A DNA stretch of 64,000 nucleotides from an uncultured Pseudomonadales bacterium (GCA_958295875.1 OY282379.1:2569046-2633045); one strand, 5' to 3'; numbered from the stretch's first letter, positions 1-36,727 are shown. Numbers and translations are program-made. Notes: generated from the letters alone by a model not told the origin.

Positions 1-225
1 TGCCATGCGAGCGCGATCAGCGCGGACGACTCGTTCGCGGAGTCCAAGTCGCTGCTTGTGGGGAAGTACATTGTGAGGAAGGGATCGATGACCGCCCGCG
101 AGTTCGCTTGGCGATCGACGCCAAATGGCCACCGGGCGAGCCACCATCCCTATTTTCGGTTAGGTCGCCAACCAATAGCGCCAACGTAACTAGAGTGAGA
201 GCCGAAGTCAACGCCTTGTGCGGGC

Positions 226-263
226 TTGTCAACGCAAAGCAGAGATGTCCCCTTTTTGCCGGC
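226..263 (+). repeat. Solo IS-end-like repeat (TTGTCAACGCAAAGCAGAGATGTCCCCTTTTTGCCGGC)
   Basis: Near-identical 37-38 bp copy at 21776..21812. Both resemble the reverse complement of the ISNCY-type element terminus at 3729..3781. Similarity between the two solo copies continues about 30 nt further, to ATGAAGCGCC / ATGAATGCGCC. Confidence 0.6.
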
Positions 264-1047
264 CGGCGCAGCCGATGAAGCGCCTGCGCGAACTGCTCGT
301 CTGGTCGCGTTCGGAACTGCTCCGGCAACGGGACGCCGCGCCCGAGCGGGAAGTGGAGTCGCAGTACTCGGGGTGACGGTGGCTGTGGGGTACGTATCCT
401 GCGGGTTGTACCGGCGTGGGTAGGGTCCCGTAAACGGTATGAATGCGACCTTCCAGAGCTTGCAGAGCTGCGAGACCAATTCCGAACGTCGTCAACTCGC
501 CAAGCCCGCGAACGGCCTTGGACGCGAGGGCATCGGATGCCGGCCTGTTGGGCAGCCACCTGACGGTTAACGATAGTGACCCGACGAGAGCCAATAGCCT
601 TGCGATTCCGCAAAATGGATGGCCGCGGTACTTTGGCGTCCAAAGTCGGCAGCGATCAACTGGCGGATTGCGCTAGCTGCAAAGTCCTGGCCATTGCCGA
701 ACGCTGGCTGTCGTTCTGGCGACCTTGATGACGCCGCTCAGTCCGTTCGTCCGCAGCCATCGAGCAGCGCGAAGCGGATGGCGTCGTAGAGGTCGGGCCG
801 GTGCCGAAATCCCAAAACAGCAACCAGCAAATGAGATGGTGGTGCCCAAGCCGAAGATCGGGGCGGCAGCGCCTGCCCCAATCGCGCCGAGATGCTGCAC
901 CTCGATGCCGCACTGAGATACTCGACCAATCGACGACGCGGCCCTGCGGCCCGATACGCAGGCGCACAACGACTGCAGCGATGTCGCGGGCCGAATCGGG
1001 CAAATGTCGCTAGCACCGCACACTCGCCGACGACCAAACTGGCCGGC

Positions 1048-2193: not shown

Positions 2194-2425
2194 TTCGCTG
2201 CACCGGCATTGCGCTGCCGCCAGCACTACGCTTGGCGCCCATGTCCCACGCAGGGCGACCGAGACGCGGAGGCGGCGGCAGCGATGGCGAAGGGCGGCAG
2301 GCTTTGCCACGAGACTGGCGCGGGCGCTGATGCAACTGCTGATCGCCCGCTTCGCCGGAGACGAGGAGAGCGACCGGCACCGACACCACATGCAGCAGGC
2401 GCTGCGCTACATGGAGGAACCCACC

Positions 2426-2734
2426 ATGCTCGCCGAGGCAATCACCGAATGGCGACAAAACGCAATCGCGGAGGGTAGAACCGAGGGCAGAACTGAGGGG
2501 AGAGCCGAGGGCTTGAGGGAAGGCACGTCCGAGGGCAGGAGGACACTGTTGCGACGCCAAGCCACCCGGCGCTTCGGCCTCGAGGCGGGGGACGAGTTCG
2601 GCCGGCTCTTGGCGGACGAAGAGGATGCCGATCGGCTGGCGCTTGCCGGCGACCTAGTGATCGACTGCTCAAGCGCGGAAGAATTGCTGAGCCGAGCGCG
2701 CCGGCTGCTGAGCGACGGATCGCTTATCGGTTGA
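2426..2734 (+). CDS. Stand-alone Rpn C-terminal (DUF4351-like) module, 102 aa
   Basis: GGAGGA at 2413..2418 with a 7-nt spacer to ATG 2426. It encodes MLAEAITEWRQNAIAEG...RRQATRRFGLEAGDEF...AEELLSRARRLL, a duplicate of the last about 103 aa of 1048..2193. Expression is unproven. Confidence 0.45.
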   Translation: MLAEAITEWRQNAIAEGRTEGRTEGRAEGLREGTSEGRRTLLRRQATRRFGLEAGDEFGRLLADEEDADRLALAGDLVIDCSSAEELLSRARRLLSDGSLIG

Positions 2735-2908
2735 CGATGGGCGTGGTCGGCCCTCTGCGGCCAAATCGGCCCGCAGCCTCAGCCCCACGCCAAGTTCAGC
2801 GCCACGAACTGCGGAGTCGTGCAATGCCGCTTGTAGTCGCGCATTGTGGTTCCGCTGGCACCCATTAGCCCGTTGGCCTACGGGAAGCTCCGCTGGCGAG
2901 TAGGTTCG

Positions 2909-3730
2909 CTAGAACAGGTAGAGCAAGTACAACAGCGGCAATGCAGCCCCATGGGGAACGAGCCGCGCGGCCTGCGCCGCCTTCGCCGCGTCCACCGGGT
3001 CCCGGACATCCTTCCCGCCAGCGACGGCAACCGCCGCCTCGCCTTCCGCCAGCACCCGGAACGCCAGCTTGCGCCCCTTGAGCAGCACCGACGCAGTGCC
3101 GTCGAAGCCCTTGCACACCGTCACCGCAGCGCCGCGGAGCCGGCGGCCCTTGCCTTCCCCGACCAGCTGGAACTCGCGCCGCTCGAACCTGAACGCCAAG
3201 TTCCTCGACAGCTTGCGGACATGGTGCTCGCAGAGGATCAGGTCCAGCTCCTCCGCGCCGTGCAGCACCACCGCGAAGCGGCGGTTGAAGTCCGCCATGA
3301 ACTCCGGCAGGCAGCTGTTCGCCGCCTCGATCCCGTCGATCCCCCGCAGCCGCATCTCCTTGACGAGCCGGTCCTGCAGCGTCAGGTTGGCGCGCTCCAC
3401 CCGCCCCTTCGCCTGAGGGGTGCTCGCGAACATCGGCCCGAAGTCCAAGTACCGCGCGCGAACCAGCGACGTCGCCGCCTGCCGAACCTCCGCGGCCAGC
3501 GCGTTGTTCGGGCGCTTGCCGCGGTGCCCCGACGCCACTCCCGCCGCGCCGCGTTCCCGGAGCCGCTTCGCCAGACGCTTCACCTGCCTCACGCTCAGGC
3601 CCAAGCGCTCCGCAGCCTCGCGCTGGCGCAGCCGCCCATCGACCACCGCCTGCGCCACCAACGCCCTGTCCGCCTCCGCCATCGTCATCGTCCCTTCGAC
3701 CTTCAATTCCCACCCCGGCGAAGTCGTCAA
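2909..3730 (-). pseudogene. ISNCY-family-like transposase, internally deleted
   Basis: The N-terminal HTH region is MTMAEADRALVAQAVVDGRLRQREAAERLGLSVRQVKRLAKRLRERGAAG...RARYLDFGP. It jumps directly to a C-terminal integrase-core tail (KGRVERANLTLQDRLVKEMRL...), so the DDE core is missing. The likely original ATG is at 3688. Confidence 0.65.
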
Positions 3731-3783
3731 AAGGGGACACTTTAGAATTGCAGGAAGGGGACATTACTGCTTTGCGCTAACAC
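2909..3783 (-). mobile_element. Degraded ISNCY-type insertion sequence, one terminus recognisable
   Basis: The terminus at 3729..3781 carries two GGGGACA boxes followed by CTGCTTTGCGCTAAC. No matching inverted copy was seen beyond the 3-prime end of the transposase ORF. Confidence 0.5.
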
Positions 3784-3905
3784 GCCTTGTGCAGGCTCAG
3801 CCGGTGGCGCGCCCAAGGAAGCCCTTGGGCGCGGCCGTTCGGTAGCCTGCGAGTTGGGAAAGGAAGCCTCGTTTGGCGGTGGCTATGGCGGCGTTGCGAA
3901 AGCAC

Positions 3906-4649
3906 CTACAGCTTCATCCGCTTGAGTATCCGTTCGGGAACGGCGCGGACGAGCAGCATGATTAGGCGCCAGACGCGGCGTATGTAAACGACGTCGCGGC
4001 GCCGATGAATCGCTGTGAGCACCGCGGCGGCGACCTCTTCGGGCGTCGCGGTTAGCTGCGCCGGCAGGTTCATCCCATCGGTCATGCGGGTGCGCACGAA
4101 GCCCGGCTTGACCGTCACCACATGGACGCCCGAGGCGGCCAGCCGGCCGCGCAGGCCGGAGAGGAACGCGGTGAACCCGGCCTTGGCGGAGCCGTAGACG
4201 TAGTTCGTGGCTCGGCCCCGTTCGCCGGCCACCGAGCTGACGCCGACGAGGACGCCGCTGCCGCGCCGCTCGAAGCGCTCGGCCAGCGCCCCCATCAGCA
4301 GCGCGGGGCCAACATAGTTGGTGCGCATCACCCGCTCGGCGGCGCCGCCGTCCCGCTGGCTTTCCGCTTGGTTGCCGAGCAGCCCGACAACGCACACTGC
4401 CACGTCGGGCAGGGGGTCGAGCGCGTCGAGCAACGAGACGCCGCCGTCCTCATCGAGCACGTCGCACGGGTGAGCGGTCACGGCGACCGCCGTGCGCACC
4501 CCGAGGTCTCGCGTCTCTCTCTCCAGCCGCCCGGCGTCGCGGGCCGCGAGCTGCAGCGCGCAGCCGTCCTGCGCCAGCGCATGCGCGATGACGCGGCCGA
4601 TGTCCGAGGTGGCGCCGATCACCAACGCTGTTTTTGGCCTGTCGTTCAC
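3906..4649 (-). CDS. SDR family oxidoreductase, DprE2-like (decaprenylphospho-erythro-pentofuranosid-2-ulose 2-reductase-like by context)
   Basis: It has a TALVIGATSDIGRVIA Rossmann motif and an SDR YGSAK catalytic motif (YxxxK). It shares an operon with DprE1-like and UbiA-like genes. Its start abuts the stop of the upstream GT-C gene. Confidence 0.75.
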   Translation of the reverse strand: MNDRPKTALVIGATSDIGRVIAHALAQDGCALQLAARDAGRLERETRDLGVRTAVAVTAHPCDVLDEDGGVSLLDALDPLPDVAVCVVGLLGNQAESQRDGGAAERVMRTNYVGPALLMGALAERFERRGSGVLVGVSSVAGERGRATNYVYGSAKAGFTAFLSGLRGRLAASGVHVVTVKPGFVRTRMTDGMNLPAQLTATPEEVAAAVLTAIHRRRDVVYIRRVWRLIMLLVRAVPERILKRMKL

Positions 4650-7351
4650 TGCGTGGCTTTCCCGTCATCCGCCGGCCCCACAACATTGAAGCGGCCCTCC
4701 CAGATGTGGCGCTCGCCGGCGTACTGGCCGGTGCGGATCTCCACGATGCCATAGTCCGGCAGTTCCCGCGTCGCCACGCAGACTCCTCCCTCGATGAAGC
4801 TGTGGTGCGCCACTGCGAAGTCGAGGTTGTCGAAGCCGTGTTGCCGGCGGTGGACGGGGAGGTCGTTCACCTCAACCGGGTCCAAGTGGAGGAAGAATGT
4901 CGGTTCGGCGTCCTCTCGGCTGCATTGGTCCTTGGCGTAGACGAGGCGGCCTTCGACGAGGTACACATCCCAGCCGGAGCGGATGACCGGCCGGTCGCCA
5001 GCCAGCGGCCCCGACGCCCAATCACCTGCTGGCATTGCCTCGAACCGAACCGGCGTGGCTCTCCCGCCATCCGCCGGCTCGACAACATTGAAACTGCCCC
5101 GCCAGATGCGGTGCTCGCCGGCGTACTGGCCGGTGCGGATCTCGGCGATGGCGTAGTCCGGCAGCTTCCGCGTCGCCATGCAGGCTCCTCCCTCGATGAA
5201 GCCGTGATCCGCGACTGCGAAGTCGAGGTTGTCGAAGCCGTGCTGCCTGCGGTGGCCGGGGAGGTCGTTCACCTCAACCGGGTCCAAGTGGAGGAAGAAT
5301 GTCGGTTCGGCGTCCTCTTGGCTGCATTGGTCCTTGGCGTAGACGAGGCGGTCTTCGACGAGGTACACATCCCAGTCGGAGCGGATGACCGGAGCGCGGT
5401 CTCCGACCAGCCTGGCCAAGTAATCGCCTGCCGGCATCATTTCAACCCCCACCGGCGGGAGCGCGTCGCGGGGCAGTATGTGCGCGGCCACGCACAGCCC
5501 CGTCTGCATTCGCGTCCAGGAATTGACGACCGTTCCATCCGACGGTCCGGGCCAGTGCCATGCGACCAGTTCATTGGGATCGCATTCTTGGCCGATGGCC
5601 TGCACCAGCCGCCCGTCGACGAGGAGCCCGACGCCGTCCGCTTGGTACTCGAAGTGCGGCGCCATCCTGTTCCAGATTCGAGTGGCGGCGTTGTCATCTT
5701 CCGGGGGCTCGATGGGCCATAGATAGAACTCTTGTCCAGATGCGCTGATTAGTGAACCTTCAAGAAGCGCCTTGCCTTTAAAGCCCACTTTCGTCAGGTT
5801 GGCGAAGTGAGTGATCCCGAGTTCTCGATAGAGGGGAATGAACTTTTCGCGCCATATGGCGTATCCGCCTCCATCCGCGTCTGTCGCGTGAAAATAGTCA
5901 TAGGAGCTGACCAGACCATCCAAGTTCACCACAGGAAAGCGTGAGAAGTACCCGATGATGCCGGCGTCCCAAGACCCGACCACGCTGTCCTCGGGGAGCG
6001 TGCGATTCATAAGCTGCGTACCGCCGTAGACGGCTGTACCGTAAGTGTCAGGTCTGGTTGAGCTGCTGCTCGCTTCAACCCCCCGGAACGGGGCGGCGAA
6101 ATCCGCCTTTGCGAACAGGAAGACCGCGCCGGCAACGACGACGCCCAGGCTCAGGGCATTGGCCGCGCGGTGCGACTTCGGCCCGATGAAACGGCGGATG
6201 AAGTGAATGGCGACATGACATCGCGCCGGAATGATCAGCGCCATCATCAGGTACGCCGGGACGAAATACCAAGGGAAGTCCCCTTGGATGGAAGGATGCA
6301 CGGTGAGGACGGTCTGCCCGAACTTGGCCAGATGGCCGGCCGCCAAGCCGGACACGCCCGCCAAGAAGGCCAGCAGAAGCCAGTCCTCCCGGTTGCGGGA
6401 CCGGCGGGCGAACCACCAGACCAGCAGCAGGTAGGCACAGACCTCCAGCGCAACCCACAGTTCAAGGTCGAAGACGTCGCTCTGCAAAACGTCCAGCAAG
6501 TTCTGCGTCAGGCTGTAACCGCCTTCCCGCTCCCATTCGGCCTGCGACCAGGCTGCCTTAGTCGCGCCACTCACCGGCAGGACGCTGCCGAAGACGAGCC
6601 AGTTGTAGGCGAAGTACACCAAAATGCTGGCGCCGGCGGCGAGAAGGGGGATGGTCGCCTTGACGGAGAGCGCTGATCGGGCCCGCTCTCCGATTGGCGC
6701 GCCGGGCGCTCGCTCCCGCCTCGACCACTCGACGAACCACAGCGCCGCTGTTGCCGCCACCGATATGGCGATGTACTCCAACCGCACCCAAGGCAGGGCG
6801 AAAGCGACCGCGGCGAGCGGCCACTTCCAACGCGCCGGGCTGCGCGCGAAGAGGCACGCGGTGAGAATGAACAGGCCCAGCATGAACAGCGCCGCCGCCG
6901 CTTCCATCCCCTGAATCAGCCCTGGCTGCTGGTAGAGCATCGGCAGGGCGGCGAACATCAGATACCACGGCATGCGCGCCAAGCGGGCGGCCGCGGCGAC
7001 GAGGGCCACGCCGCCGGCGACGAGCATCACCTCGAACGCCTTGATGGCGAACAGCGCCGCTTCCTTGTCGAGTGCCCAGTAGAACGGCGTGATGAGAAAC
7101 AGCCAGAGGGGGTGGTATCCGTTGGTGCGCGTGATGCCGCCGTCGAAGGTGGAGAACTTCCCCTCGGCGAGGTTGCTGGCGATCTCGAAGTAGTAGAAGG
7201 CGTCGTCCGCGTTCACGCCGCGGATCAGGTCGATCAAGTCGAAGCGGGCGAGCATGTGCCAAGCTAACCCGGCCCCGTAGGCTAGGACTCCCCCGATGAA
7301 CAGGACGAACAGCGCGTTGCGCAGAGTGGTCAGCTTGTCCATGTCCCTCAC
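4646..7351 (-). CDS. GT-C-like polytopic membrane glycosyltransferase (arabinosyltransferase-like by context) with two C-terminal 131-134 aa tandem repeats
   Basis: There are many predicted TM helices. An ADDAFYYFEIA motif (DD in the first extracytoplasmic loop) follows TM1. The N-terminal part, about 650 aa, is homologous to 10451..12940. The C-terminal tandem repeat is VIRS[D/G]WDVYLVE..LVYAKDQCS.EDAEPTFFLHLDPVEVNDLP. Confidence 0.8.
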   Translation of the reverse strand: MRDMDKLTTLRNALFVLFIGGVLAYGAGLAWHMLARFDLIDLIRGVNADDAFYYFEIASNLAEGKFSTFDGGITRTNGYHPLWLFLITPFYWALDKEAALFAIKAFEVMLVAGGVALVAAAARLARMPWYLMFAALPMLYQQPGLIQGMEAAAALFMLGLFILTACLFARSPARWKWPLAAVAFALPWVRLEYIAISVAATAALWFVEWSRRERAPGAPIGERARSALSVKATIPLLAAGASILVYFAYNWLVFGSVLPVSGATKAAWSQAEWEREGGYSLTQNLLDVLQSDVFDLELWVALEVCAYLLLVWWFARRSRNREDWLLLAFLAGVSGLAAGHLAKFGQTVLTVHPSIQGDFPWYFVPAYLMMALIIPARCHVAIHFIRRFIGPKSHRAANALSLGVVVAGAVFLFAKADFAAPFRGVEASSSSTRPDTYGTAVYGGTQLMNRTLPEDSVVGSWDAGIIGYFSRFPVVNLDGLVSSYDYFHATDADGGGYAIWREKFIPLYRELGITHFANLTKVGFKGKALLEGSLISASGQEFYLWPIEPPEDDNAATRIWNRMAPHFEYQADGVGLLVDGRLVQAIGQECDPNELVAWHWPGPSDGTVVNSWTRMQTGLCVAAHILPRDALPPVGVEMMPAGDYLARLVGDRAPVIRSDWDVYLVEDRLVYAKDQCSQEDAEPTFFLHLDPVEVNDLPGHRRQHGFDNLDFAVADHGFIEGGACMATRKLPDYAIAEIRTGQYAGEHRIWRGSFNVVEPADGGRATPVRFEAMPAGDWASGPLAGDRPVIRSGWDVYLVEGRLVYAKDQCSREDAEPTFFLHLDPVEVNDLPVHRRQHGFDNLDFAVAHHSFIEGGVCVATRELPDYGIVEIRTGQYAGERHIWEGRFNVVGPADDGKATQ
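4649..5443 (-). repeat. Coding tandem repeat (2 x about 400 bp) forming the C-terminal domain pair of the 901-aa GT-C-like protein
   Basis: Unit 2 is 4649..5041 (131 aa) and unit 1 is 5042..5443 (134 aa). They are near-identical at the protein level. Confidence 0.85.
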
Positions 7352-7836
7352 AACGCGAGCCGCCGCGACAGTTCGGAGACGAACCTAGGATGGCCGCCAG
7401 CCGCCTCGGCGCGAACCGCCTCAAAGGCGCCGAGGCGGGGATAGCCTTCGCGCACCCGTTCCGGCGCGCAGTGGGCATCCTTGGCAAGATAGACGCGGCC
7501 GCCGTGGCGGTGGGTGATCTCGTCGAGGCCGTCGAGCAGCGTGGCGGTGCCGCTGCGCACCGGGAAGTCGAGCGCCAGCGTGTAGCCCTCCATGGGGAAC
7601 GACATCAGCCCATCCCCGGCGGGGCCGAATAGCTTGAGCACCGCCAGGAAGGAGCCTTGCCCCGACGCGGCGGCGCACTCAAGCAGGGCGGCCACGCCGG
7701 CCGCGCTCTCGCCTTTGGGCAGCACGCACTGGTACTGGACGAACCCCCGCCGCCCGTAGAGGCGGTTCCACGCCTCGATGCGGTCGAGGGGAAAGAAGAA
7801 GCGGTCGAAATGAACCGGCCGCGCCCCGGTGCGCAC
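7348..7836 (-). pseudogene. Truncated duplicate of DprE1-like FAD oxidoreductase (C-terminal 162 codons only)
   Basis: It differs from the last 162 aa of 12937..14274 at about 6 positions. The N-terminal FAD-binding two-thirds is absent. It keeps the same 4-nt overlap with the downstream GT-C start as the intact copy. Confidence 0.8.
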
Positions 7837-7887
7837 ACGTCTCCGCCCGCGCCGAAGTTCCTCCCGCGACCTGTTCGACCCCCACGT

Positions 7888-7971
7888 TCACAGTGCGGCT
7901 TTCCCATCATCCGCCAAGCCGCCAAGATCGAAGCCGCTCCTCCAAGTGTGATCCTCGCCGGGTGTGCGCCG
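7888..7971 (-). pseudogene. Relic of the 3-prime end of a VIRSDWDVYLVE-type repeat unit
   Basis: The translation RRTPGEDHTWRSGFDLGGLADDGKAAL-stop parallels the end of the 901-aa protein (TGQYAGERHIWEGRFNVVGPADDGKATQ-stop). Confidence 0.4.
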
Positions 7972-8006
7972 GTCAGCGCCGATTGCGCCGATAGAGCGAG
8001 AAGGCA

Positions 8007-10208
8007 TTACGGTTTTTCCGACTGCAGTTGCCGCGCCAGCATGACGTGGTCGAGCATGATGTGTCCCCATCCGCCAGTTTCGTCGTCGAACAGTTCCAAC
8101 TGCAGACGCTGGCCGGCGACCTCGCGTAAGGGGTGGATGACCCGACTGAACCGTTCGGTGTTCTCGCCACGCCAGATCGCCGCTTCGTCGCCGTCGGCCA
8201 ACAGGCGCAACCCGACGCCGCCCCCGCCGCCGCCGGCTATCAGGAATACGAGATGGCCAGACTCTGCGGTGAACATCGGCGAGAGCGCCCGCCCGGTGGT
8301 TTGGTCTCCCTTGTCCGGATGGAAACTTGTCAGGAAGCCCCTGCCCGCATTGCCGCTGATCGGCTGCTGGCCTCTGTAGCGTTCATGTTGACCTTGATTC
8401 GTGATCGCTTCGCCTTCCAGAAGCCAGCCGTCAAGTCCATCTTCGAAGCGTCCGATAAACCGCACATCGTCAAAGGACAACACCCGCAAGTCTCGTCCGG
8501 CAAAACGGTCCAAGACCCACTGCCGATCCGGAGAGTCAAAGGGCATCCACAAGAGCGGGCCGACCTGTAGGGCGTATTCCGCGCGGCCAAGCGCTTGGAG
8601 TTCGCTGGTTGCGGGCGGGTGGATGATGAAGTTGACGCCCCGCTCTTCAAGGTATCCGGGTGGTGGCCAACGGTCGTGGGCAATGGCGCGCTTGTGGTTC
8701 GGTGTGCTGACAGGGTTGCGCGCCACCGTCGCGTCGGTCAAGCCGTGTAGGTCCACGACCTTCAGATCGGGAAGATGGTAGAAGCGGATTCCCAACGCAC
8801 CGCCGGCCATCAGCGCGTCCTCGGGAATCACTCCGTCCTCCTTGTTCTCGTAGGGCTTCCATGTTCGCAATTTCGAGTTGGCGTGCGCGCGGTGTTCCGT
8901 GAAAGGCGAAGCAACGGACTGGCGGGCAAGTTGGCGGCGCAGGTCGTTGGAGATGGCGACGAGCATCGGCATCCCCGGCGCAGCAAGCAGCCATCCCGCA
9001 TTGTCGTCGTCGAGTTCTATGTGGAGCTTCAAAATGTATTCGCTTATCGCGGCCCCCTTGAATAACAGGGTGCTTTGAATTGCGCTGGCGTAGAACAACA
9101 CCGGTACGAAGAGAGCGATTGCGCACGTTCGCACGTGCCGGTAGCGGGGAGGGAGTCGTCGCAACCGCCGGTGGTCGGCAAGCCGCGCGCCGAGGCACAC
9201 GATTCCCATGGACGCGGGAACCGCCAGCAGCGGCCAGTAGAAATCCAGCGGACGGTACTCGAAGTGGTCGCCTCCGATGCGCATCACATAGGCCATGTGG
9301 ACGCCGACGAGGAGCAGCACCAGCGCCCCCATGCCATCCCGGGATGCTCGCCAGCGGTTCCGCATGGCGATTGCGGCCAAGGGGATCAGCAGATACAGCC
9401 CGGTCTCCAGCGCCGCCGCCCACAGGTAGCGAAAACCGGACTCGTACCAAGGCCGTATGTGCTTGGCGTAGTAGGTGTTGGGCAGCCATTCGCCGTAGTA
9501 GGCGTAGCGCCACAGGAAGTGGGCGCCGATCAGGAAAACGAAGGGCGTTGCCAAACAGATCAACCGCCGCCAGTCCGGATTCCTAGCGCCCGTGTCCGCC
9601 ATCCGCTGCACGACGAACCAGCCGAAGCACAGCGCCGCCAACAGCGGCCCTTCGGGCCGCGTCAAGGCGGCGGCGGCTAAGCTCAACGACGCCGCCAGCA
9701 GACCCCCGCGGCTGTCCCTGTAGAGGCTCAGGCACACCACGGCCAGAACGACGAAGAAGGTGAACTGCCGCGTCTCCAGCCCGCCGGCGGACGTCCACAC
9801 CGCGAAGGTGGCGCTGGCGCACACCAGCCCGAGCGCCATCCACCCCACCAGCGCTCGGTGGAGCAGCGACGGCAGGCGCGCGACCCACCACATCATCGCC
9901 GCGATGGTGCCGGCGGTGAAGGCCACCGACAGCCACGGCGCAGCGTGCTCCGGCGCCACTCCCGATAGTCTCCATATCGCCGCGAGCTCCAGCACCCACA
10001 GGAAATTGGAATACCCCTCGACATGCTCGCCGGGGTTGAACACCAGGCCGTGGCCGTCGAGCAGGTTGCGGACGTAGCGGAAGCTGATGAACGCGTCGTC
10101 GCACAGGAACCACGCGACGGAGGAGAACCATGCCAGCAGCACCAGCCACGGCAAATGCAGCAGAATGGCTCGCGCGTTTCTGAGGGCATTCCCCTTCATC
10201 GGGATCAT
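8007..10208 (-). CDS. GT-C-like polytopic membrane glycosyltransferase (second type) with C-terminal beta-sandwich (LamG / GH32-C-like) module
   Basis: A CDDAFISFRYVRNLLDGHGLVFNPGEHVEGYSNFLW motif follows TM1, and there are multiple TM helices. The C-terminal 146 aa are shared with 10451..12940 (FEDGLDGWLLEGEAITN...GGWGHIMLDHVMLAR). Confidence 0.8.
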   Translation of the reverse strand: MIPMKGNALRNARAILLHLPWLVLLAWFSSVAWFLCDDAFISFRYVRNLLDGHGLVFNPGEHVEGYSNFLWVLELAAIWRLSGVAPEHAAPWLSVAFTAGTIAAMMWWVARLPSLLHRALVGWMALGLVCASATFAVWTSAGGLETRQFTFFVVLAVVCLSLYRDSRGGLLAASLSLAAAALTRPEGPLLAALCFGWFVVQRMADTGARNPDWRRLICLATPFVFLIGAHFLWRYAYYGEWLPNTYYAKHIRPWYESGFRYLWAAALETGLYLLIPLAAIAMRNRWRASRDGMGALVLLLVGVHMAYVMRIGGDHFEYRPLDFYWPLLAVPASMGIVCLGARLADHRRLRRLPPRYRHVRTCAIALFVPVLFYASAIQSTLLFKGAAISEYILKLHIELDDDNAGWLLAAPGMPMLVAISNDLRRQLARQSVASPFTEHRAHANSKLRTWKPYENKEDGVIPEDALMAGGALGIRFYHLPDLKVVDLHGLTDATVARNPVSTPNHKRAIAHDRWPPPGYLEERGVNFIIHPPATSELQALGRAEYALQVGPLLWMPFDSPDRQWVLDRFAGRDLRVLSFDDVRFIGRFEDGLDGWLLEGEAITNQGQHERYRGQQPISGNAGRGFLTSFHPDKGDQTTGRALSPMFTAESGHLVFLIAGGGGGGVGLRLLADGDEAAIWRGENTERFSRVIHPLREVAGQRLQLELFDDETGGWGHIMLDHVMLARQLQSEKP

Positions 10209-29859: not shown

Positions 29860-31043
29860 GCGGGGTGAGGTGGCGCTGGCGACGGGAACCCGCCGCCAGC
29901 GCCGGATCGGGTAGCCTCAGTGAATGCGAAGTCACTGGTGGAGACCCGAGCCATGCGAATCGAATCGATGCGGATCAGATCGTACCGCAGTTTCAGGGTG
30001 GACGACGCCGAACTGCCGGCCGAGGCCCGCGGGCGCCTGTCGGCGATCCGCCGGTTCGATGGGCTGCGCGCCGCCGGCTGCGCCGAGCGCGCCGCCTTGA
30101 GGGAGGTCGGCGTCAGCCGCCGCACCCTGTATCGGTGGAAGGCCGCGCTGGCCGCCGGCGGCCAGCGCGGCCTCGCGCCGAAGTCCACCCGACCGCGCCG
30201 CGTCCGCCGCCCGGCGCGCAAGCCGGGCGACGTGAAGGCGGTCATGGCCATGCGCCGCAAGCACCCGTTCATGGGCAAGGCGCCCATCCAGCGCATGCTC
30301 GAACGCCAAGGCCTGCGGCTGAGCGCGTCAACCGTCGGGCGCATCCTCTCGCGCGCCATCGCGGACGGGACCGTGCCCCCCGCCAGCCTCTGCGAAGGAC
30401 GGGCCAAGCCCAAGCGCCCCCGCAAGTTCAACGGCTGGGCGCGGCGCTGGAAATACGGCGACAAGGCCGAGCGCCCGGGCCAGCTCGTCCAGATCGACCA
30501 CATGACCGTCTCCCGCGACGGCAGCTCCATCAAGGAGTTCCGCGCCATCTGCCCCGTCAGCCGGTTCATGGTCGCCCGCGCCTTCTCCCGCGCCACCGCC
30601 GCCACCGCAGCGCGCTTCCTCGCCGTCGTCGCCGAAGCCCTCCCCGTGCCGCTGGAGTCCGTCCAGGTCGACGGCGGCAGCGAGTTCATGGCCGGCTTCG
30701 AGGACGCCTGCAGGAACCTCGGCGTCGCGCTGCGCGTCCTGCCGCCGCGACGGCCGCAGTGGAACGGCTGCGTCGAGCGCGCCAACCGCACCGCCCGCAT
30801 CGAGTTCTGGAACCTCCTCGACTGCGACCTCACCGTCGAGGCCGTCTCCGAGAGGCTCCTCAAGCGCGAGTTCTTCTACAACTACATCCGACCGCACTCC
30901 GCAATCGACTACCGATCCCCCAACGAGTACCTTGTCGCCCACGAGGCTGCCCAGCCTCAGTGCCAGATGTCATGAACCGGTTCAGCCCCTTGACCTCGCG
31001 GGAGCCTTGGCGCTAGGTTGCGGTCGGCCAATTGGACTCACAG
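29860..31043 (+). mobile_element. IS481-family insertion sequence (boundaries tentative)
   Basis: It carries a single transposase ORF. Weak terminal inverted similarity exists (GGTGAGG... at the left, ...ACTCACAG at the right). A possible 5-bp direct repeat CGATG lies at 29855..29859 and 31044..31048. Confidence 0.4.
29920..30975 (+). CDS. IS481-family transposase (DDE integrase core)
   Basis: HTH region: VGVSRRTLYRWKAALAAGGQRGLAPKSTRP. DDE core: LVQIDHMTV, VQVDGGSEFM, RPQWNGCVERANRT. Confidence 0.85.
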   Translation: MNAKSLVETRAMRIESMRIRSYRSFRVDDAELPAEARGRLSAIRRFDGLRAAGCAERAALREVGVSRRTLYRWKAALAAGGQRGLAPKSTRPRRVRRPARKPGDVKAVMAMRRKHPFMGKAPIQRMLERQGLRLSASTVGRILSRAIADGTVPPASLCEGRAKPKRPRKFNGWARRWKYGDKAERPGQLVQIDHMTVSRDGSSIKEFRAICPVSRFMVARAFSRATAATAARFLAVVAEALPVPLESVQVDGGSEFMAGFEDACRNLGVALRVLPPRRPQWNGCVERANRTARIEFWNLLDCDLTVEAVSERLLKREFFYNYIRPHSAIDYRSPNEYLVAHEAAQPQCQMS

Positions 31044-31045
31044 CG

Positions 31046-32392
31046 ATGCCAGATAGCCAGCTAGATTGGCGGAAGCTCCTCTGCTCGACGCGGCGGAAGG
31101 AGATCGCACGAAAACGACACTGCGGTCAAGCCGCATCCGCCGGCACCCACGTCTGCGCCGAAGAGATTGAGCACGATTACGACAGGATCCTTTCCTCGAC
31201 CTCAACGCGTCGGCTGGCTGACAAGACGCAACTCTTCCCTCCTGACACGAATCGCTCTATTAGTACCCGTTTAACGCACTCGCTCGAGGTCAGCAACTTA
31301 GCCCGCAGCATCGGCGTTCGGCTTGCCCATGATCATCGCCACGACGTGTTTGGCGAGCTTGCCGACAAGCTGCAAGCGGAACGAACGGTTCCCGCGTTGC
31401 TAGCTGCCGCGGGCCTTGCACACGACCTCGGCACTCCACCTTTCGGCCATCCAGGCGAAAAGGCCATTCGCCTGTGGTGCAAGACCCGCGGCATCAAACT
31501 CAAGGATTTTGCCGAGTTCGACAGCAATTGCCAGACGTTCCGCCTCCTGACGCGCCTTCAGATCCTTGACGGCAATTTCGGCCTAGACCTGACGTGCGCC
31601 ACGCTCGCCACGTCGCTCAAGTACCCAGCCTTCTCCAACGACCTAAGTGGCTTCAAGAAGTTCGGGATTTTTGAACGCGAGCGCAACATAGCTCACGAAG
31701 TATGGGATCAAACCGGCCTCGCCGAGGGGGTGCGGCACCCTTTGGCCTACATCGTGGAAGCATGCGACGACATTGCTTACTCCGTAATGGACGTCGAAGA
31801 CATCGTAAGAATGGGCTACGCATCCTGCAACAACGTAATGGATTTCCTTGCGCAAAGTTCAGATGCCAAGACTAAAGCCGTGAGGAAAAGAACCCTAAAT
31901 GAGTGTAAGGTGTTTGCAAGTAAGAAGAGCCAGCGGCATTTGGATGAGCAATCTATGCTGGTGTTTAGGACCATTTCCATTTCTGAGATGATAGAATCGA
32001 TTACTAGAACGTTCGTTTCCCATATCGATCAGATACTCAAGGGAGAAGTAGATGGCGAATACAAGCTCGTTCCAAAATCCGACGTTGCGGAACTCTGTTG
32101 CCGGCTTAAGAAGTTTGGTAGACGTAGAGGATTCGAGCATCGAGATATATGTCAGCGGGCGATGAAGGACAAGAAGCAGGTCAGAGAAACGATGGATTAC
32201 CTCTGGTGTGGCATCGCGAATCCGGATCGAGGTAGCGCTTATTCGCGCCTGCCTGAGATTGACCGTCGAGCGTACGAAGTGACCTCTCGTTCTTGGTCCG
32301 ACAAGTTGCACCTGCTATGCGACACCGTTGCGAGCATGACGAATAGCGAACTGATCTCTTTACGCGACGACCTCAAAGGCATTCTGCAGTAG
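31046..32392 (+). CDS. dGTPase-family HD-domain deoxynucleoside triphosphate triphosphohydrolase-like protein
   Basis: LDWRKLLCSTRRKE is a Dgt-type N-terminus. RLTHSLEVSNLARSIG and GLAHDLGTPPFGHPGE are HD motifs, and ACDDIAYSVMDVED is also present. The GC content is visibly lower than the flanks. Confidence 0.8.
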   Translation: MPDSQLDWRKLLCSTRRKEIARKRHCGQAASAGTHVCAEEIEHDYDRILSSTSTRRLADKTQLFPPDTNRSISTRLTHSLEVSNLARSIGVRLAHDHRHDVFGELADKLQAERTVPALLAAAGLAHDLGTPPFGHPGEKAIRLWCKTRGIKLKDFAEFDSNCQTFRLLTRLQILDGNFGLDLTCATLATSLKYPAFSNDLSGFKKFGIFERERNIAHEVWDQTGLAEGVRHPLAYIVEACDDIAYSVMDVEDIVRMGYASCNNVMDFLAQSSDAKTKAVRKRTLNECKVFASKKSQRHLDEQSMLVFRTISISEMIESITRTFVSHIDQILKGEVDGEYKLVPKSDVAELCCRLKKFGRRRGFEHRDICQRAMKDKKQVRETMDYLWCGIANPDRGSAYSRLPEIDRRAYEVTSRSWSDKLHLLCDTVASMTNSELISLRDDLKGILQ

Positions 32393-32419
32393 TAGCACGT
32401 CTTGATCGCAACGAGCGTA

Positions 32420-33343
32420 TCAGGAGATCTCGCCAAGAGAGTTGCCCAAAAGAAACACTAGTACGAGTACCACCGGCAAAATAGTCCATCTCCCCCAAAT
32501 GGCATCGCGCAAAACAAGCATTAGGGCGGAAGTAGAGAGTGCGAGTGATAGAGCAATTGCCCCAATTCGGACCCAAGCGCTTAACTCAGGAATGGACTGT
32601 AGGGCATCACTTTCACGACCGACCAAAACAGCAAACAAGACTCCGAGCAATGTAATGACGAGCGTAGAGAAGTAGACCGCTTGTGACCTAACATCGTCCA
32701 CTGCCTTTGCTACTTGTTTAGCGCGTTGCTCTACTTTCGTAACCCTTTCCCCGTATTGAGACAATGCGGACTCATGTGCGCCATGGGGAGCGACGCTTTC
32801 GATGTCCCGTGGGGGTAATGATTCAAAAGGCTCGCATTGAGAGGCGGTGTAAGGAGTGCTCTTTACGAAGTCGATCAGCGCAAGCTTATCGCCCCTCTTG
32901 AGCTTTACGGATCTTCTAGAGAGATTGTAAATGGGACACGCCAGCTTCCCGATGTATCCGGGGTCAACCTGCGCTGCCCCCACCCACAGCAGCCCCTTGT
33001 ATGCTAGCTTAACCTTGATGTTCCACCTTGCAATCATGAACCTAGGGATGCAGAGATGTTCTAGAGTCTCTATAACGACTACCTCGTAGGGTTCGATTTC
33101 GAAAGTGTCAGCGTCTTGCAGTTCCTCCTTTTGCAAACCGCGGAAGTAACGATCTCCAACCCGCATCTGGTAGCCAGCTGGCTCAAGGCTGTCCCTAGAG
33201 AAGGGATGTATCATGCAATGGCTGTCGACGTAGCATTCTATCCGATTGCTGAGCAGCACGCCGTATTCGGACGGATAGGGGTCATATTCTAAGGTACGGA
33301 GGTCGACCTTAGATACGCTATTCGGGCGGACTGCGGCCATCAT
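32420..33343 (-). CDS. dCTP deaminase / dUTPase-fold protein with C-terminal coiled-coil and three TM helices
   Basis: The Dcd-like core is LLSNRIECYV...IHPF...LEPAGYQMRVG...IEPYEVVVIETLE...VDPGYIGKLACPIYN...LKRGDKLALIDF. The C-terminal TM segments are AVYFSTLVITLLGVLFAVLVG, WVRIGAIALSLALSTSALMLVL and WTILPVVLVLVFLLG. Confidence 0.7.
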   Translation of the reverse strand: MMAAVRPNSVSKVDLRTLEYDPYPSEYGVLLSNRIECYVDSHCMIHPFSRDSLEPAGYQMRVGDRYFRGLQKEELQDADTFEIEPYEVVVIETLEHLCIPRFMIARWNIKVKLAYKGLLWVGAAQVDPGYIGKLACPIYNLSRRSVKLKRGDKLALIDFVKSTPYTASQCEPFESLPPRDIESVAPHGAHESALSQYGERVTKVEQRAKQVAKAVDDVRSQAVYFSTLVITLLGVLFAVLVGRESDALQSIPELSAWVRIGAIALSLALSTSALMLVLRDAIWGRWTILPVVLVLVFLLGNSLGEIS

Positions 33344-34441
33344 TCAGACTCCAGTTAGGCTCGTCGTTTGCAGCAGTGAACGGTCATGTCTGCGTGTGTT
33401 GTTAGCGTCAATGCTCGTGCGCGTATCGAAATCTGAACGTGGCACCAGCTTGGTGGGTGACGTTCCGACCCAATCGAATGTCCTCCCGATGCTCGCTTCA
33501 AACGAGGCGACAGTGACTTCCCACGACGGGGGCAGGGTAGTGGCGGCGGCCGTCTGATCAAAGTAGTCTACATGATTAAGCACTAGGTGGGTCGCGCCGT
33601 TGGCGTCAATAGCCTCCTTAACGATGGCTGGATCGAATCGTGCCACGCGGCGGACGCACTTGGTCACCGATGAAAGCTCGGATAGGTGCGCGCGACCACA
33701 ATTGATGCCGATAGTGCGCCAGTCGGTCTCGAATGGCAGCGGGCCGGAGTTGCCGCTCACTCGGATCGGGAAGGCCCGCGCAACGAGGACAATGCAGTCA
33801 ACCTCAACAGGGCTAAGTCCGGCTTCGGCGACGAACGCGGCGGCAGTGGTATTGCGGCTCGTAACGTAGGGGTAATGGCTCGATAGAAGGTTGGAGAGCC
33901 CGAAGCCTTGTGTGCCCTCGATTAGAACACGCTCTCCGCGATCCAAGGCGGCCCGGATCAGCGGGCGGGTGGGCCGAACGAAACGGGCGATATAGCTATC
34001 GTCGGAAGCCCAATGCACGGCGTTGGAACGTGAGACTCGATCCATTACTGCTGCGCCCGTGCCGCTAGCGGTCGATCCGATCCGAGCCCTAAGCGCTGAG
34101 CTTCTCTCCTTGCTCTTATGCTCGTCGGTGATGACCATCGCACGTGGATCTATCACCAGCCTGTCTCGAGGGAGGTCGATGCGCTCCACGTCTTGCCGCA
34201 GCGCTTCGGCGTCAATGTAGGAGCCGGGGCCGAGCACGCATAGGGTATCTTGAAGGAGCGCGGCTGTTGGGAGGTGGCGGAAAACATGCCGGCGACCATC
34301 GCTGCCGTAGGCCGTATGGCCAGAGTTTGAGCCGCCCACGCGGATAACAATCGTGGCCTGTTGGTGCTGCGCCAAGAACAGCGCGACCTTGCCCTTGCCC
34401 TCAGAGCCAAACTGGGCGCCGGCTACCACGGTTACGGGCAT
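33344..34441 (-). CDS. Adenylosuccinate synthetase (PurA) family protein, divergent, PurZ-like active-site substitutions
   Basis: By-eye alignment to E. coli PurA gives these matches: FGSEGKGK vs PurA GDEGKGK; GGSNSGHT vs GGHNAGHT; IGSTASGTG vs IGTTGRGIG; EGTQGFGL...YPYVTS vs EGAQG...YPYVTS. ATG at 34441 overlaps the upstream stop by 10 nt. Its stop abuts the next ATG. Confidence 0.75.
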   Translation of the reverse strand: MPVTVVAGAQFGSEGKGKVALFLAQHQQATIVIRVGGSNSGHTAYGSDGRRHVFRHLPTAALLQDTLCVLGPGSYIDAEALRQDVERIDLPRDRLVIDPRAMVITDEHKSKERSSALRARIGSTASGTGAAVMDRVSRSNAVHWASDDSYIARFVRPTRPLIRAALDRGERVLIEGTQGFGLSNLLSSHYPYVTSRNTTAAAFVAEAGLSPVEVDCIVLVARAFPIRVSGNSGPLPFETDWRTIGINCGRAHLSELSSVTKCVRRVARFDPAIVKEAIDANGATHLVLNHVDYFDQTAAATTLPPSWEVTVASFEASIGRTFDWVGTSPTKLVPRSDFDTRTSIDANNTRRHDRSLLQTTSLTGV

Positions 34442-36552
34442 TGGCCGTCTCTGCGAAGATGTGTCGTCACGATCTCGTCGCAGACACAAAGAGCGTGATG
34501 TTCTCCCTCGTTAGGGAGGATTTGATCCGCTAGCTGCCGCAGCTTTTCGACCCCCTGCTCAACATCATGGTGGCTTGTGTCGTCGAAGTCGGCATGAGGC
34601 CCGTTTCGCTGAACAAACCGCTGTCGTCGGACATCGGCGGACACATCAAGATGGACATGGGTGAACGCTGGGCCATAGCGCTCTAGCCAGAAAGCGCGGT
34701 CTTCCGGCCATCGCAGGCCATCCACAACGAACATCTGCCTGCTGTCGCCGTAACGGGCAAGCAGCTGGCGGTTGAGCCATCGTTGCCCTAACTCAACGTG
34801 GATACTCTGGCCGACCTCTTGGAGCGTCTGCCTAGTAGTGCCCCTGCCTTGCCTCACTGCCTCGTCTGCCACCACTTGGCTATAGCGACCATAAGTGAGG
34901 CCCCGCTTCTCCAACCCATGTGCGACGGTTGTCTTGCCCGAAGAAATCGGGCCACTGACGCCGACTACGAGCCGGCCGTGCCACTGCGTCTCCCGGCCCT
35001 CGTCGGAAACTCTCGGAATGATCAAGTAGTCTTCATCCTCGTTCCCTAGCGCCTCAAATCGGCCTGACCAGAAGAACAGCCCAACAATGGCGGACGTGAT
35101 GGCATCGAGCTCGTCGTGTTTGGGGTTGGCGTCCGGTGAAACCGAGCGTCCTTCAAGGCCAAAGCGGCGGAGACCCTCCTTCAATTGCACAAGGCTCGCC
35201 CGTTTTCGCGGGATGTCCATGATGTCTTGGGCGGCGCCGGGATAACTCTCTATCACCGGGATGCCCAAAGCCCGGATTTTGGCCGCTAAGCCCATGCCAC
35301 GATCAGTGAGTTTTTGCATGCTGGGGATCAAGCAGGGGTACACGTTGATGCCCCGGCGTTTCAACATACGCTCACACACCCGCATGATGCCAAATTCGGC
35401 GCGACCGGGGTCGTCGTCATCAACACGGATGCGGCCTCGCGGCAGCGAAAGTGGCGAGTCGATCGACACGAGCTGGGGTTTGATGGCGGCTATGGCCTCT
35501 AGCATCTCCGCGTCCGTTCTAACCATGCGCGTTTCGACGCGGCGGCCCTTGAGCTCGCACCATCCGGATGGTCGGTGCTCCGAGCCGGTGAGGTCGATGC
35601 CGATCACAGTAATGGCATCACCACGAATGTAGTCCACTAAGTCCTCGTAGGTCGCCTTGGGGCCAGTTCGGCCTCGGAACTGCGGCACGTCAATGACGTT
35701 GATGCCTTTGGCGCCACGCTTGAAACATACCGACGCCCTAGCAGACGCGAATGGAGCGGGCGGATTAAGTCGCTGATTCTCGCCGAGGCGCCGGATGGTC
35801 TCGTCGAGGATGGCCTTCATGCCTTCCACATCTGAATGGTTGTATTGGACCAAATCGTGGCCAGCGCGTAAGTCGCCATTCCTGTACTCGTACCAGAGCC
35901 GCACGGCATCCGCACCAGTGGCATCGCTGATTTGCTCGGGACGTTCAAAGCGCAACTCGCGCTCGATCTTCTTTTGGCCGCCCTTCAATTGCGCCCGCCG
36001 GGCGAAGTAGCGTAGGTCAACATGTGCGCGAGGCAGGTTTGCGCCGCTTTCTAGCCTCGCCAGAAACTTCAAATCGAAAGCTGTGCCGTTAAACGTAACG
36101 AGACACTTGGCGTCGTTCAACAGATCATGCCAGACGCCTGCGGACGTATCTGGGAACCAACAGGCGTAGCGCTTGCCCCTCGATAGGCCGATCAGCGTGA
36201 TTTCGTCGTAGTAGAGGCTCAGGCCGGTCGTCTCGATGTCCAAGAACACGGTGTCGTCTGGGAAGGTTGTGGCTATTCTGTAGTGCTCTCGAGATGGGAG
36301 CCTAGCGGCGAAGTAGTCCGCGTCCTTGTCGGAGAGCGCATATCGGGAAGCTTCGATGGCAGCCAAGCAGTCGTCGCGAGCGGGAGCGAACAGATCGGCT
36401 GGCGGCCGGCGGGCTTCTTCGAGATCAGACCAAGTTAGGATGCCCTCTCCCCACAAGCGCCTCTCCGTGCGCAGGCCGATCCTAGGGAGGTGGATGAACG
36501 TATGTTCGAGCGGGCAGCGGTTCAACTCCACGTCATCCTCGTCTTGCCCCAA
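34432..36552 (-). CDS. Three-domain fusion: YprB-like RNase H-fold 3-5 exonuclease, DUF429-like RNase H-fold domain, and P-loop nucleotide kinase-like domain
   Basis: Exonuclease domain: VFLDIETTGLSLYYDEITLIG, LVTFNGTAFDLKFL and YNHSDVEGM (DEDD-like). DUF429-like domain: VIGIDLTGSE...HDELDAITSAIVG. Kinase-like domain: VVGVSGPISSGKTTVA...VVDGLRWPED. The start is TTG at 36552. Confidence 0.75.
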   Translation of the reverse strand: MGQDEDDVELNRCPLEHTFIHLPRIGLRTERRLWGEGILTWSDLEEARRPPADLFAPARDDCLAAIEASRYALSDKDADYFAARLPSREHYRIATTFPDDTVFLDIETTGLSLYYDEITLIGLSRGKRYACWFPDTSAGVWHDLLNDAKCLVTFNGTAFDLKFLARLESGANLPRAHVDLRYFARRAQLKGGQKKIERELRFERPEQISDATGADAVRLWYEYRNGDLRAGHDLVQYNHSDVEGMKAILDETIRRLGENQRLNPPAPFASARASVCFKRGAKGINVIDVPQFRGRTGPKATYEDLVDYIRGDAITVIGIDLTGSEHRPSGWCELKGRRVETRMVRTDAEMLEAIAAIKPQLVSIDSPLSLPRGRIRVDDDDPGRAEFGIMRVCERMLKRRGINVYPCLIPSMQKLTDRGMGLAAKIRALGIPVIESYPGAAQDIMDIPRKRASLVQLKEGLRRFGLEGRSVSPDANPKHDELDAITSAIVGLFFWSGRFEALGNEDEDYLIIPRVSDEGRETQWHGRLVVGVSGPISSGKTTVAHGLEKRGLTYGRYSQVVADEAVRQGRGTTRQTLQEVGQSIHVELGQRWLNRQLLARYGDSRQMFVVDGLRWPEDRAFWLERYGPAFTHVHLDVSADVRRQRFVQRNGPHADFDDTSHHDVEQGVEKLRQLADQILPNEGEHHALCVCDEIVTTHLRRDGQCP

Positions 36553-36637
36553 AGGATGCCTCGTTCCGTTGTTGCACCATTTGTATCACGTTGATGCTGA
36601 TGAACGCAGCTCCGCAACGAAGCGGACGACCAGAAGT

Positions 36638-36727
36638 TGGCGGAGAGGCAGGGATTCGAACCCTGGGTGCCCAAAGGACACACCTGATTTCGAGTCAGGC
36701 CCGTTCGACCAACTCCGGCACCTCTCC
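36638..36727 (-). tRNA. tRNA-Ser (anticodon CGA), CCA encoded
   Basis: A 90-nt cloverleaf was folded by hand. Acceptor: GGAGAGG/CCTCTCC. Anticodon arm: CCTGA-CTCGAAA-TCAGG. Long variable arm: GTGTCC-TTT-GGGCAC. T arm: CAGGG-TTCGAAT-CCCTG. Confidence 0.9.

Follow-up and report, generated by a model that had tools for sequence, protein, structure and literature searches.

A predicted nuclease-kinase fusion protein heads a widespread gene cassette with a PurZ-like partner

We analyzed a 64,000-nucleotide stretch of DNA from an uncultured Pseudomonadales bacterium (GCA_958295875.1, OY282379.1:2569046-2633045), here called the window, with positions counted from its first letter. One open reading frame (ORF) in it encodes what appears, by its sequence signatures and predicted structure, to be a single conserved polypeptide of four modules. 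From N- to C-terminus these are a helix-hairpin-helix (HhH) DNA-binding element, a DEDDy 3′-5′ exonuclease, a RuvC-like DUF429 domain, and a P-loop domain resembling nucleoside monophosphate (NMP) kinases. This fusion is the first gene of a three- to four-gene cassette that recurs across bacterial phyla. The second gene encodes a PurZ-like enzyme, a cellular relative of the phage PurZ that makes precursors of 2-aminoadenine DNA, and the third encodes a protein of the Dcd/dUTPase fold. The cassette is widespread but undescribed, and it is probably an anti-phage or nucleotide-remodeling system. In the reading that we favor, though with somewhat less than even confidence, breakdown of DNA by the fusion would be coupled to PurZ-type conversion of deoxypurines in a conflict or defense system that acts on the nucleotide pool.

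The fusion protein and its modules

The ORF is intact (Table 1), and every motif quoted in a first-pass annotation, which had described a single 706-aa ORF joining three domains, is present in it. Translation probably begins at codon 8, a GTG (position 36531), giving 699 aa, because the closest homologues start there, including one at 96% identity that is itself 699 aa long. More than 2,600 hits were obtained in a homologue search. Among the best 120, nearly all are about 700 aa long and 48–96% identical to the query, and a few have 600–660 aa and cover 82–88% of it. More than 100 homologues of 48–96% identity align with the ORF from end to end, so it is neither a chance fusion nor the product of the frameshifts that the first-pass annotation had named as a possible source of error. 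When 1.84 billion representative proteins were searched exhaustively, the fusion matched 368 clusters (50% identity) at E ≤ 1e-30. The family, which databases name only “DUF429 domain-containing protein” or “YprB,” is common but uncharacterized rather than rare, and what had been called an unusual fusion belongs to a large conserved family.

Invariant residues were scored in an alignment of 19 homologues of 48–86% identity, and the full-length protein was modeled with AlphaFold2 (predicted local distance difference test, pLDDT, 83; predicted template modeling score, pTM, 0.78). The three domain assignments of the first pass all lie above their Pfam thresholds. The HhH-like N-terminus that it had also proposed has no match in Pfam, and it is borne out by the family consensus in the alignment, HLPGIGxRTERxLW, and by the model, in which residues 14–35 form a helix, a hairpin, and a helix (pLDDT 83–91).

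The exonuclease domain scores 94.7 bits against the Pfam model RNase_H_2 (PF13482; cut-off 22, E 7.5e-27). Its residues D105, E107, N155, D160, Y237, and D241 are invariant and correspond to the Exo I (DxE), Exo II (NxxxFD), and Exo III (YxxxD) motifs in the DEDDy pattern. By sequence profile the domain matches B. subtilis MrfB/YprB (PDB 8un9), which is a member of the same Pfam family, and by fold it is nearest to NrnC (7mpl, Foldseek). It differs from these enzymes in its third exonuclease motif, which is YxxxD (DEDDy) with an invariant tyrosine, and in being continued by the DUF429 and kinase domains; also, no MrfA-type helicase is encoded alongside.

The Pfam match to DUF429 (PF04250) is marginal in the window's protein, at 23.7 bits against a cut-off of 23; precomputed PF04250 hits exist on many fusion homologues and also on variant proteins. 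Residues D320, D365, H479, D480, E481, and D483 are invariant and make up the acidic set of a nuclease with the RNase H fold. A model of the DUF429 domain alone reached pLDDT 90, and its top Foldseek matches were RuvC (4ld0, E 6.6e-5, TM-score 0.64 on the target), Ydc2, MOC1, and TerL nucleases. No solved relative was found by sequence-profile search of the PDB, and neither the PDB nor the literature searches yielded a structure or an activity for DUF429. The start of the domain weakly matches the PADLOC candidate PDC-S44 (2e-8). The likeness to DUF429 and PDC-S44 comprises the threshold Pfam match, the RuvC-like fold, and conserved acidic residues on strands 1 and 4 and on the last helix. DUF429 has been placed in RNase H-like clade D with RuvC, terminase, and YqgF, and its members described as mostly single-domain proteins that are now and then fused to NUDIX or RelA/SpoT (Majorek et al. 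2014, PMC3985635). The Exo-DUF429-kinase architecture is not described in that survey.

In the C-terminal part, residues 532–667 match AAA_33 at 27.5 bits (cut-off 27), with further Pfam matches to AAA_18, AAA_17, and CoaE. Profile searches of the PDB matched 3lw7 (2.7e-8) and 3h0k (about 3e-8). The nearest structure by Foldseek was the AMP-bound, adenylate-kinase-related SSO1041 (3lw7, TM-score 0.86 on the target), followed by dephospho-CoA, adenylate, and UMP kinases. The invariant residues here are G534, G539-K540-T541-T542, D611-G612, R614, R642, and R645. They include the Walker A motif GxxxxGKTT and a DGxR motif about 70 residues downstream of the P-loop, the spacing of NMP kinases; R642 and R645 could be lid arginines. 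Judged by these residues, each catalytic domain of the fusion keeps an intact catalytic signature.

The kinase part also matches the kinase-like region of the PADLOC dCTPase model (positions 154–320 of 630, 1.5e-8), which is a point of likeness to the anti-phage dCTP deaminases. The fusion differs from them in having no cytidine-deaminase domain, and it scores only 15.6 bits against the cut-off of 400 of the corresponding NCBIfam model, NF041025. The cassette's Dcd-fold partner differs too, having the trimeric Dcd/Dut fold without the catalytic glutamate.

Recurrence of the cassette and shuffling of its modules

We scanned one genome per prokaryotic species, confirmed 435 relatives, and analyzed the best 80 as loci (numbered L001 onward below). 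A PurA-like gene is present in 63 of the 80, and both PurA-like and Dcd-fold genes are present in 54. The gene order of the window, with overlapping or nearly abutting genes, recurs in 44. Among kinase-bearing fusions, 51 of 53 are accompanied by the PurA-like gene, and both exceptions lie on contigs that end within 600 nt; all 51 assessable kinase-bearing loci therefore carry it, in nearly all cases directly downstream. Kinase-bearing hosts include Pseudomonadota, Acidobacteriota, Bacteroidota, Bacillota, Thermodesulfobacteriota, Nitrospirota, Latescibacterota, and NC10, and cassettes without the kinase also occur in Verrucomicrobiota, Actinomycetota, and two archaeal loci (L059 and L068; Archaeoglobaceae, Thermoplasmatales). 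The fourth gene, found in 20 loci, is a deoxynucleoside kinase (dNK, PF01712). No other broadly conserved neighbors of the cassette were found in the related loci, and full-text literature searches turned up no paper that describes the cassette or the fusion.

Thirteen loci, mostly alphaproteobacterial, share an accessory gene of about 245 aa, which adjoins the cassette in most of them. Examples are L022 8804–9553 (minus strand; no Pfam match), L025 8843–9601 (minus strand), and L029 9977–10711 (plus strand), and the gene product carries the motifs MQNRYxGDxGDxAK, FFDPDNGIE, and HHxNR.

Both the same fusion and its split counterparts, which the first-pass annotation had thought worth looking for, exist in other genomes. 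In L049, L058, L060, and L077, the kinase has a gene of its own, located between those for the nuclease and the PurZ-like enzyme. In L061 and on the R. leguminosarum plasmid pRLN3, it instead forms the N-terminal part of a fusion with the PurZ-like enzyme. These last fusions argue that the kinase would act on what the PurZ-like enzyme consumes or produces and not on DNA ends. Kinase-less Exo-DUF429 proteins were found within cassettes and alone.

The arrangement of the kinase bears directly on a reading that we consider very unlikely, in which the P-loop domain would be a polynucleotide 5′-kinase (the polynucleotide kinase, PNK, or AAA_33 type), the fusion would trim and re-phosphorylate DNA ends, and the link to the PurZ-like enzyme would be only regulatory. 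AAA_33, a family to which the kinase domain of polynucleotide kinases also belongs, is indeed the best Pfam match of the domain, and in the window the domain shares a polypeptide with two nucleases and an HhH element. However, the same kinase is attached to a PurZ-like mononucleotide enzyme without any nuclease in L061 and pRLN3. Its closest structures are AMP-bound SSO1041 and the dephospho-CoA, adenylate, and UMP kinases, and its DGxR motif is placed as in NMP kinases.

The N-terminal half of the protein is exchangeable as well. In a subfamily of 900–1000 aa (L069 1927–4626; P0229, P0233, P0251, P0253), HHH_8 and a PolX-type PHP domain replace the HhH element and the DEDDy exonuclease, with HHH_8 at the HhH position, and the same DUF429-kinase core is kept. 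The L069 variant lies in a full four-gene cassette. Its PHP domain matches 3au2 at 1e-33, and its alignment to PolX is confined to the HhH and PHP parts; we rejected the possibility that this variant bears a polymerase, as the gap between HhH and PHP is too short for a Pol-beta core. The PHP domain in PolX enzymes is a 3′-5′ exonuclease, and the swap of unrelated 3′-end-processing modules supports a putative role of the fusion as an exonuclease at DNA 3′ ends.

Relatives of the fusion are absent from 50,697 phage records searched by tblastn and from IMG/VR searched by pattern scan, and we rejected on this basis the idea that the fusion is part of a prophage Z-cluster. The plasmid matches are partial only, consisting of stand-alone DUF429, stand-alone exonucleases (on haloarchaeal plasmids), and one kinase-PurZ-like fusion. 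This last case, on pRLN3 (L081, NZ_CP025015.1 72362–84811, locus 1–8282), has a RADAR pair followed directly by a 533-aa kinase-PurZ-like fusion (motif GSEGKG) and then DUF7002, which is also found 3′ of the cassette in L003 and L004. The RADAR pair consists of an RdrA-like ATPase (8hr7, 8e-22) and an RdrB-like adenosine deaminase (8fnw, 2.4e-96), and the layout hints at a link of PurZ-type enzymes to purine-nucleotide-deaminating systems. On the Dyadobacter chenhuakuii plasmid NZ_CP099631.1 (L082, locus 4459–6621), a DUF429 protein of 206 aa that stands alone and shares 52% identity with the window's domain directly follows a DACNG-DACNH-DAC (diadenylate-cyclase-like) protein, perhaps as another nucleotide-signaling pairing of the same nuclease.

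The partner proteins and the putative function of the cassette

The first-pass annotation had coupled the fusion translationally to a PurA-like gene. The coupling is borne out by an overlap of 10 nt (ATGCCCGTAA) between the two genes, but the partner is better described as PurZ type. The window's PurZ-like protein has a Pfam match at 2.2e-48 and falls below the cut-offs of two NCBIfam models, with 239 bits against 300 for PurZ and 244 bits against 368 for archaeal-type PurA. Since it misses the PurZ cut-off, it belongs to a distinct cellular branch outside the curated phage family.

Serine in place of Asp13 of PurA is a marker of PurZ (PMC12884076; bioRxiv 10.1101/2025.10.22.683976). At this position, 56 of 60 cassette enzymes have Ser, three have Gly, and none has Asp, while His41 is kept. 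We aligned the cassette enzymes with PurZ of phiVC8 and pB23, PurZ0 of Sapo and Goodman, and PurA of E. coli and Pyrococcus. The motifs GS(E/T)xKG, IGST, and TxKxRR are common to the cassette enzymes and the phage PurZ and PurZ0, whereas PurA has GDEGKG, IGTT, and TGRRRR. The window's protein reads GSEGKG, with Ser at the Asp13 position, IGST, and TKCVRR; it also retains His41 (GGSNSGHT), with His37 and Ala39 replaced by Ser. In a maximum-likelihood tree, the 60 cassette and four phage enzymes lie together on one side of a branch with 100/99 support, opposite the two PurA sequences. A few archaeal sequences with Ser or Gly have been placed basal to phage PurZ (PMC12884076). As far as sequence can tell, the cassette partner is a PurZ-type enzyme and not PurA, and it forms a separate cellular branch.

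The phage Z-clusters closest to the cassette comprise PurZ with DatZ/MazZ, as in phiVC8 and S-2L, and above all PurZ0 with DutZ and with or without DmtZ, in phages of Gordonia, Arthrobacter, and Microbacterium (PMC12884076, PMC8342488). Such clusters have a dATP/dGTP hydrolase (DatZ, MazZ, or DutZ) and, in many cases, DpoZ. The cassette resembles the PurZ0 type in having a PurA-family enzyme with Ser at Asp13, IGST, and TxKxRR that groups with PurZ/PurZ0. Its PurZ-like gene adjoins a gene of the dUTPase/Dcd superfamily, much as PurZ0 lies a few genes from DutZ, and, like the phage clusters, it would rely on further kinases and PurB to reach the triphosphate. Unlike the phage clusters, the cassette is cellular, and its island has no Z-specific polymerase, DatZ, MazZ, or DmtZ. 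Its Dcd-fold protein is membrane-anchored and lacks the dUTPase motifs that Dut of Sapo and Goodman keep, and the double-nuclease-kinase fusion is an addition absent from every phage Z-cluster.

The first-pass suggestion that nucleic-acid degradation is coupled to nucleotide phosphorylation fits this comparative evidence, because elsewhere the kinase is separate or fused to the PurA-like enzyme, a dNK can be the fourth gene, and PHP can replace the exonuclease. The dNK as fourth gene in 20 loci also suggests deoxy substrates. In the mechanism that we favor, the two nuclease domains, with HhH guiding the exonuclease, would bind DNA ends and break DNA down to deoxynucleoside monophosphates. The PurZ-like enzyme would then join deoxyguanosine monophosphate (dGMP), derived from DNA breakdown and, where dNK is present, from salvage, to aspartate, yielding N6-succino-2-amino-dAMP. 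The kinase would phosphorylate this succino product, or the 2-aminoadenine (Z) deoxymonophosphate dZMP formed from it by host PurB, toward the di- or triphosphate. The part of the fusion in the cassette would thus be to generate the substrate and to activate the product. As a net outcome, deoxyguanosine (dG) nucleotides would be drained, a noncanonical purine deoxynucleotide built, and replication of the phage (and the cell) stalled. Expression of the phage Z-cluster is toxic to E. coli, Z enters its DNA, and cellular polymerases incorporate Z (PMC8342488); therefore, such a product could stop replication. The proposed logic of starving or corrupting the deoxynucleoside triphosphate (dNTP) pool is like that of nucleotide-depleting defenses, and a defensive dGTPase is the immediate neighbor of the cassette in the window. 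Each domain is of a known kind, and it is the logic of the whole cassette that resembles the phage Z-cluster and the nucleotide-depleting defenses.

The Dcd-fold partner leads to the main rival of this mechanism. The window's protein matches Pfam DCD at 1.2e-14, and its closest solved relatives are the 155–156-aa “dCTP deaminase” chains 9ln0 and 8y1w. In all 54 family members, the position of the deaminase Glu138 is occupied by Pro. The family keeps VDPGxxG and the following Asn (N141), but not the RSS phosphate motif, and the C-terminal arm, which Dut of phages Sapo and Goodman keep, is replaced by a coiled coil and transmembrane segments. One to three such segments are predicted at the C-terminus of 51 of the 54 partners. 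Given the loss of Glu, RSS, and arm, the partner would be neither a canonical deaminase nor a canonical dUTPase. The Dcd-fold partners are also very divergent (23–40% identity), whereas the two enzymes are conserved.

In the rival reading, which we regard as unlikely, the fusion would sense foreign DNA ends and release or phosphorylate the substrate of the PurZ-like enzyme, whose product would be a trace signal nucleotide, namely an aspartate-conjugated or 2-amino purine (deoxy)nucleotide. The dead Dcd-fold trimer would be its receptor, and the transmembrane helices would damage the membrane and cause abortive infection. Such a scheme is comparable to the membrane effectors of CBASS and Pycsar and to the modified deoxynucleotide signal of Kongming. 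It would account for a Dcd fold that keeps its pocket residues while losing Glu138 and RSS and gaining membrane segments, for the divergence of this partner beside conserved enzymes, as is often the case for effector modules, and for the likeness of the kinase to the kinase-like domain of the anti-phage dCTP deaminase. On the other hand, no known signaling system has a signal synthase of the PurA family, the common presence of a dNK, along with two nuclease domains, suggests a bulk flux of nucleotides and not trace signaling, and loss of the canonical motifs is no proof that the Dcd-fold protein has lost all catalysis. The repair or salvage reading below and the polynucleotide-kinase reading above are lesser rivals.

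A bolder claim would span the pool-directed and the signaling schemes: bacteria and some archaea would own a PurZ pathway as an immune weapon, in which, upon infection, the fusion would turn DNA into deoxynucleotides and help to make 2-aminoadenine or still succinylated deoxynucleotides from those of dG; these would enter replicating DNA and poison it, or signal to the dead Dcd trimer. We think this somewhat unlikely; if it holds, Z-base chemistry would for the first time have a use in cells, and nucleotide-based defense would gain a new class. PurZ chemistry, in which 2-aminoadenine takes the place of adenine, has so far been regarded as an invention of phages with only a few odd relatives in archaea, and here it is faced with a large cellular PurZ-type clade. 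Should the cassette make Z or succino-Z nucleotides, it would represent a cellular source for the phage pathway, a new way to manipulate dNTP pools in phage-host conflict, and the first biochemical setting for DUF429.

The surroundings of the cassette point to defense islands. Among the 110 ORFs nearest to it, from about 58 loci, Pfam and PADLOC identified type I and IIG restriction-modification genes, SoFic/Fic, CapP-like M78 peptidases, MADS, RmrA, a Schlafen-type helicase, and transposases. An AIPR gene and a PD-(D/E)XK protein lie upstream in L023, and L021 has an ERF recombinase. In the window, the context is likewise one of conflict, with a low-GC island beside a tRNA, the PADLOC dGTPase, Rpn genes, and an insertion sequence (IS) element.

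These surroundings must be set against a housekeeping role in repair or salvage, which we judge quite unlikely. Here the fusion would trim damaged or imported DNA, and the cassette would recycle or clean up deoxypurines (for example, deoxyinosine monophosphate, dIMP, or dGMP to the deoxyadenosine pool), with no phage role. The nearest solved exonuclease by sequence, MrfB, is a repair enzyme. The genomic context of DUF429 has been described as conserved and non-mobile (Majorek et al. 2014, PMC3985635). The gene rlmJ recurs next to the cassette in eight loci, and archaeal Exo-DUF429 relatives lie among housekeeping genes, twice adjoining a PurB-like lyase. Against this role, the kinase-bearing form is patchy across phyla, and the copy in the window sits in the island just described. 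Restriction-modification, SoFic, AIPR, and MADS genes flank the cassette elsewhere, and the replacement of Asp13 by Ser is specific to PurZ, which forms 2-aminopurines, and not to salvage PurA (PMC12884076).

The two archaeal cases are L047 6164–7537 and L048 2160–3925 (ANME-1, Halobacteria), where the Exo-DUF429 gene is followed by a PurB-like adenylosuccinate lyase gene. In L048, a 127-aa ORF joins the N-terminal P-loop of PurA to a dNK-like C-terminus. The flanks of both loci are housekeeping-like (TBP, FlpD, radical SAM), and the PurB-like link may be coincidental.

Though the coupling of DNA breakdown to PurZ-type conversion remains our preferred reading, several points weigh against it. 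The tally of defense genes in the flanks had no control set, and the PurA outgroup of the tree consisted of two sequences, one of them partial. PADLOC-DB v2 holds no system model for the cassette; in PADLOC, the PurZ-like and Dcd-fold proteins have no match, and the fusion has partial matches only. The archaeal relatives found among housekeeping genes are stand-alone Exo-DUF429 proteins. The rRNA methyltransferase gene rlmJ (PF04378) adjoins the cassette in L026, L032, L036, L046, L079, L007, L022, and L035, six of which are alphaproteobacterial, and the PurZ-like tree partly tracks taxonomy; together these look more vertical than is typical of defense genes. That rlmJ recurs points either to a favored site of insertion or to vertical descent in some Pseudomonadota. 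With its altered active site, the Dcd-fold partner may not supply dGMP as phage DutZ does. Finally, the cassette of the window has neither dNK nor PurB.

The cassette locus in the window

The features of the locus are collected in Table 1. As the first-pass annotation had stated, the fusion ORF adjoins a tRNA-Ser gene and heads its operon. The PurZ-like gene starts at ATG 34441, because nearly all homologues begin at the equivalent Met; its longest ORF (33344–34489) opens 16 codons upstream, at TTG 34489. The ATG of the Dcd-fold gene directly abuts the TGA of the PurZ-like gene.

Table 1. Coordinates of the fusion, its modules, and the neighboring features in the window
Feature	Position	Strand	Details
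Fusion ORF	34432..36552	minus	Uninterrupted, 706 codons counted from TTG
HhH	36412..36513	minus	Residues ~14–47; LPRIG in the window, LPGIG in the family consensus
DEDDy 3′-5′ exonuclease	35803..36249	minus	Predicted; RNase_H_2 PF13482, YprB/MrfB type; residues 102–250
DUF429	35032..35601	minus	PF04250; RuvC-like RNase H fold (predicted); residues 318–507
NMP-kinase-like P-loop domain	34501..34971	minus	Residues 528–684
PurZ-type adenylosuccinate-synthetase homologue	33344..34441	minus	365 aa from ATG 34441
Membrane-anchored Dcd/dUTPase-fold protein	32420..33343	minus	307 aa; three predicted C-terminal transmembrane segments
dGTPase-type HD protein	31046..32392	plus	Convergent with the cassette; PADLOC dGTPase 1.5e-65
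IS481-family transposase	29920..30975	plus	Pfam HTH_32, rve_3, LZ_Tnp_IS481; far edge of the island
tRNA-Ser (anticodon CGA)	36638..36727	minus	ARAGORN; 85 nt upstream of the fusion ORF, edge of the low-GC island

A low-GC stretch of about 31000–36600, with a GC fraction of 0.45–0.62 against 0.67–0.75 in the flanks, begins right after the tRNA-Ser gene. No direct repeat of the tRNA-Ser 3′ end that could mark an att site bounds the island, where only short repeats at chance level were found, and a consensus scan for promoters and terminators gave nothing above shuffled expectation. The Rpn-type (Transposase_31) genes of the window lie outside the low-GC stretch. We rejected the dGTPase as a component of the cassette, as among the 80 related loci it occurs only in the 96%-identical L001. 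The lowest GC of the island, 0.45–0.51, is in the dGTPase region, and 70 nt separate the end of the IS481-type ORF from the dGTPase ATG.

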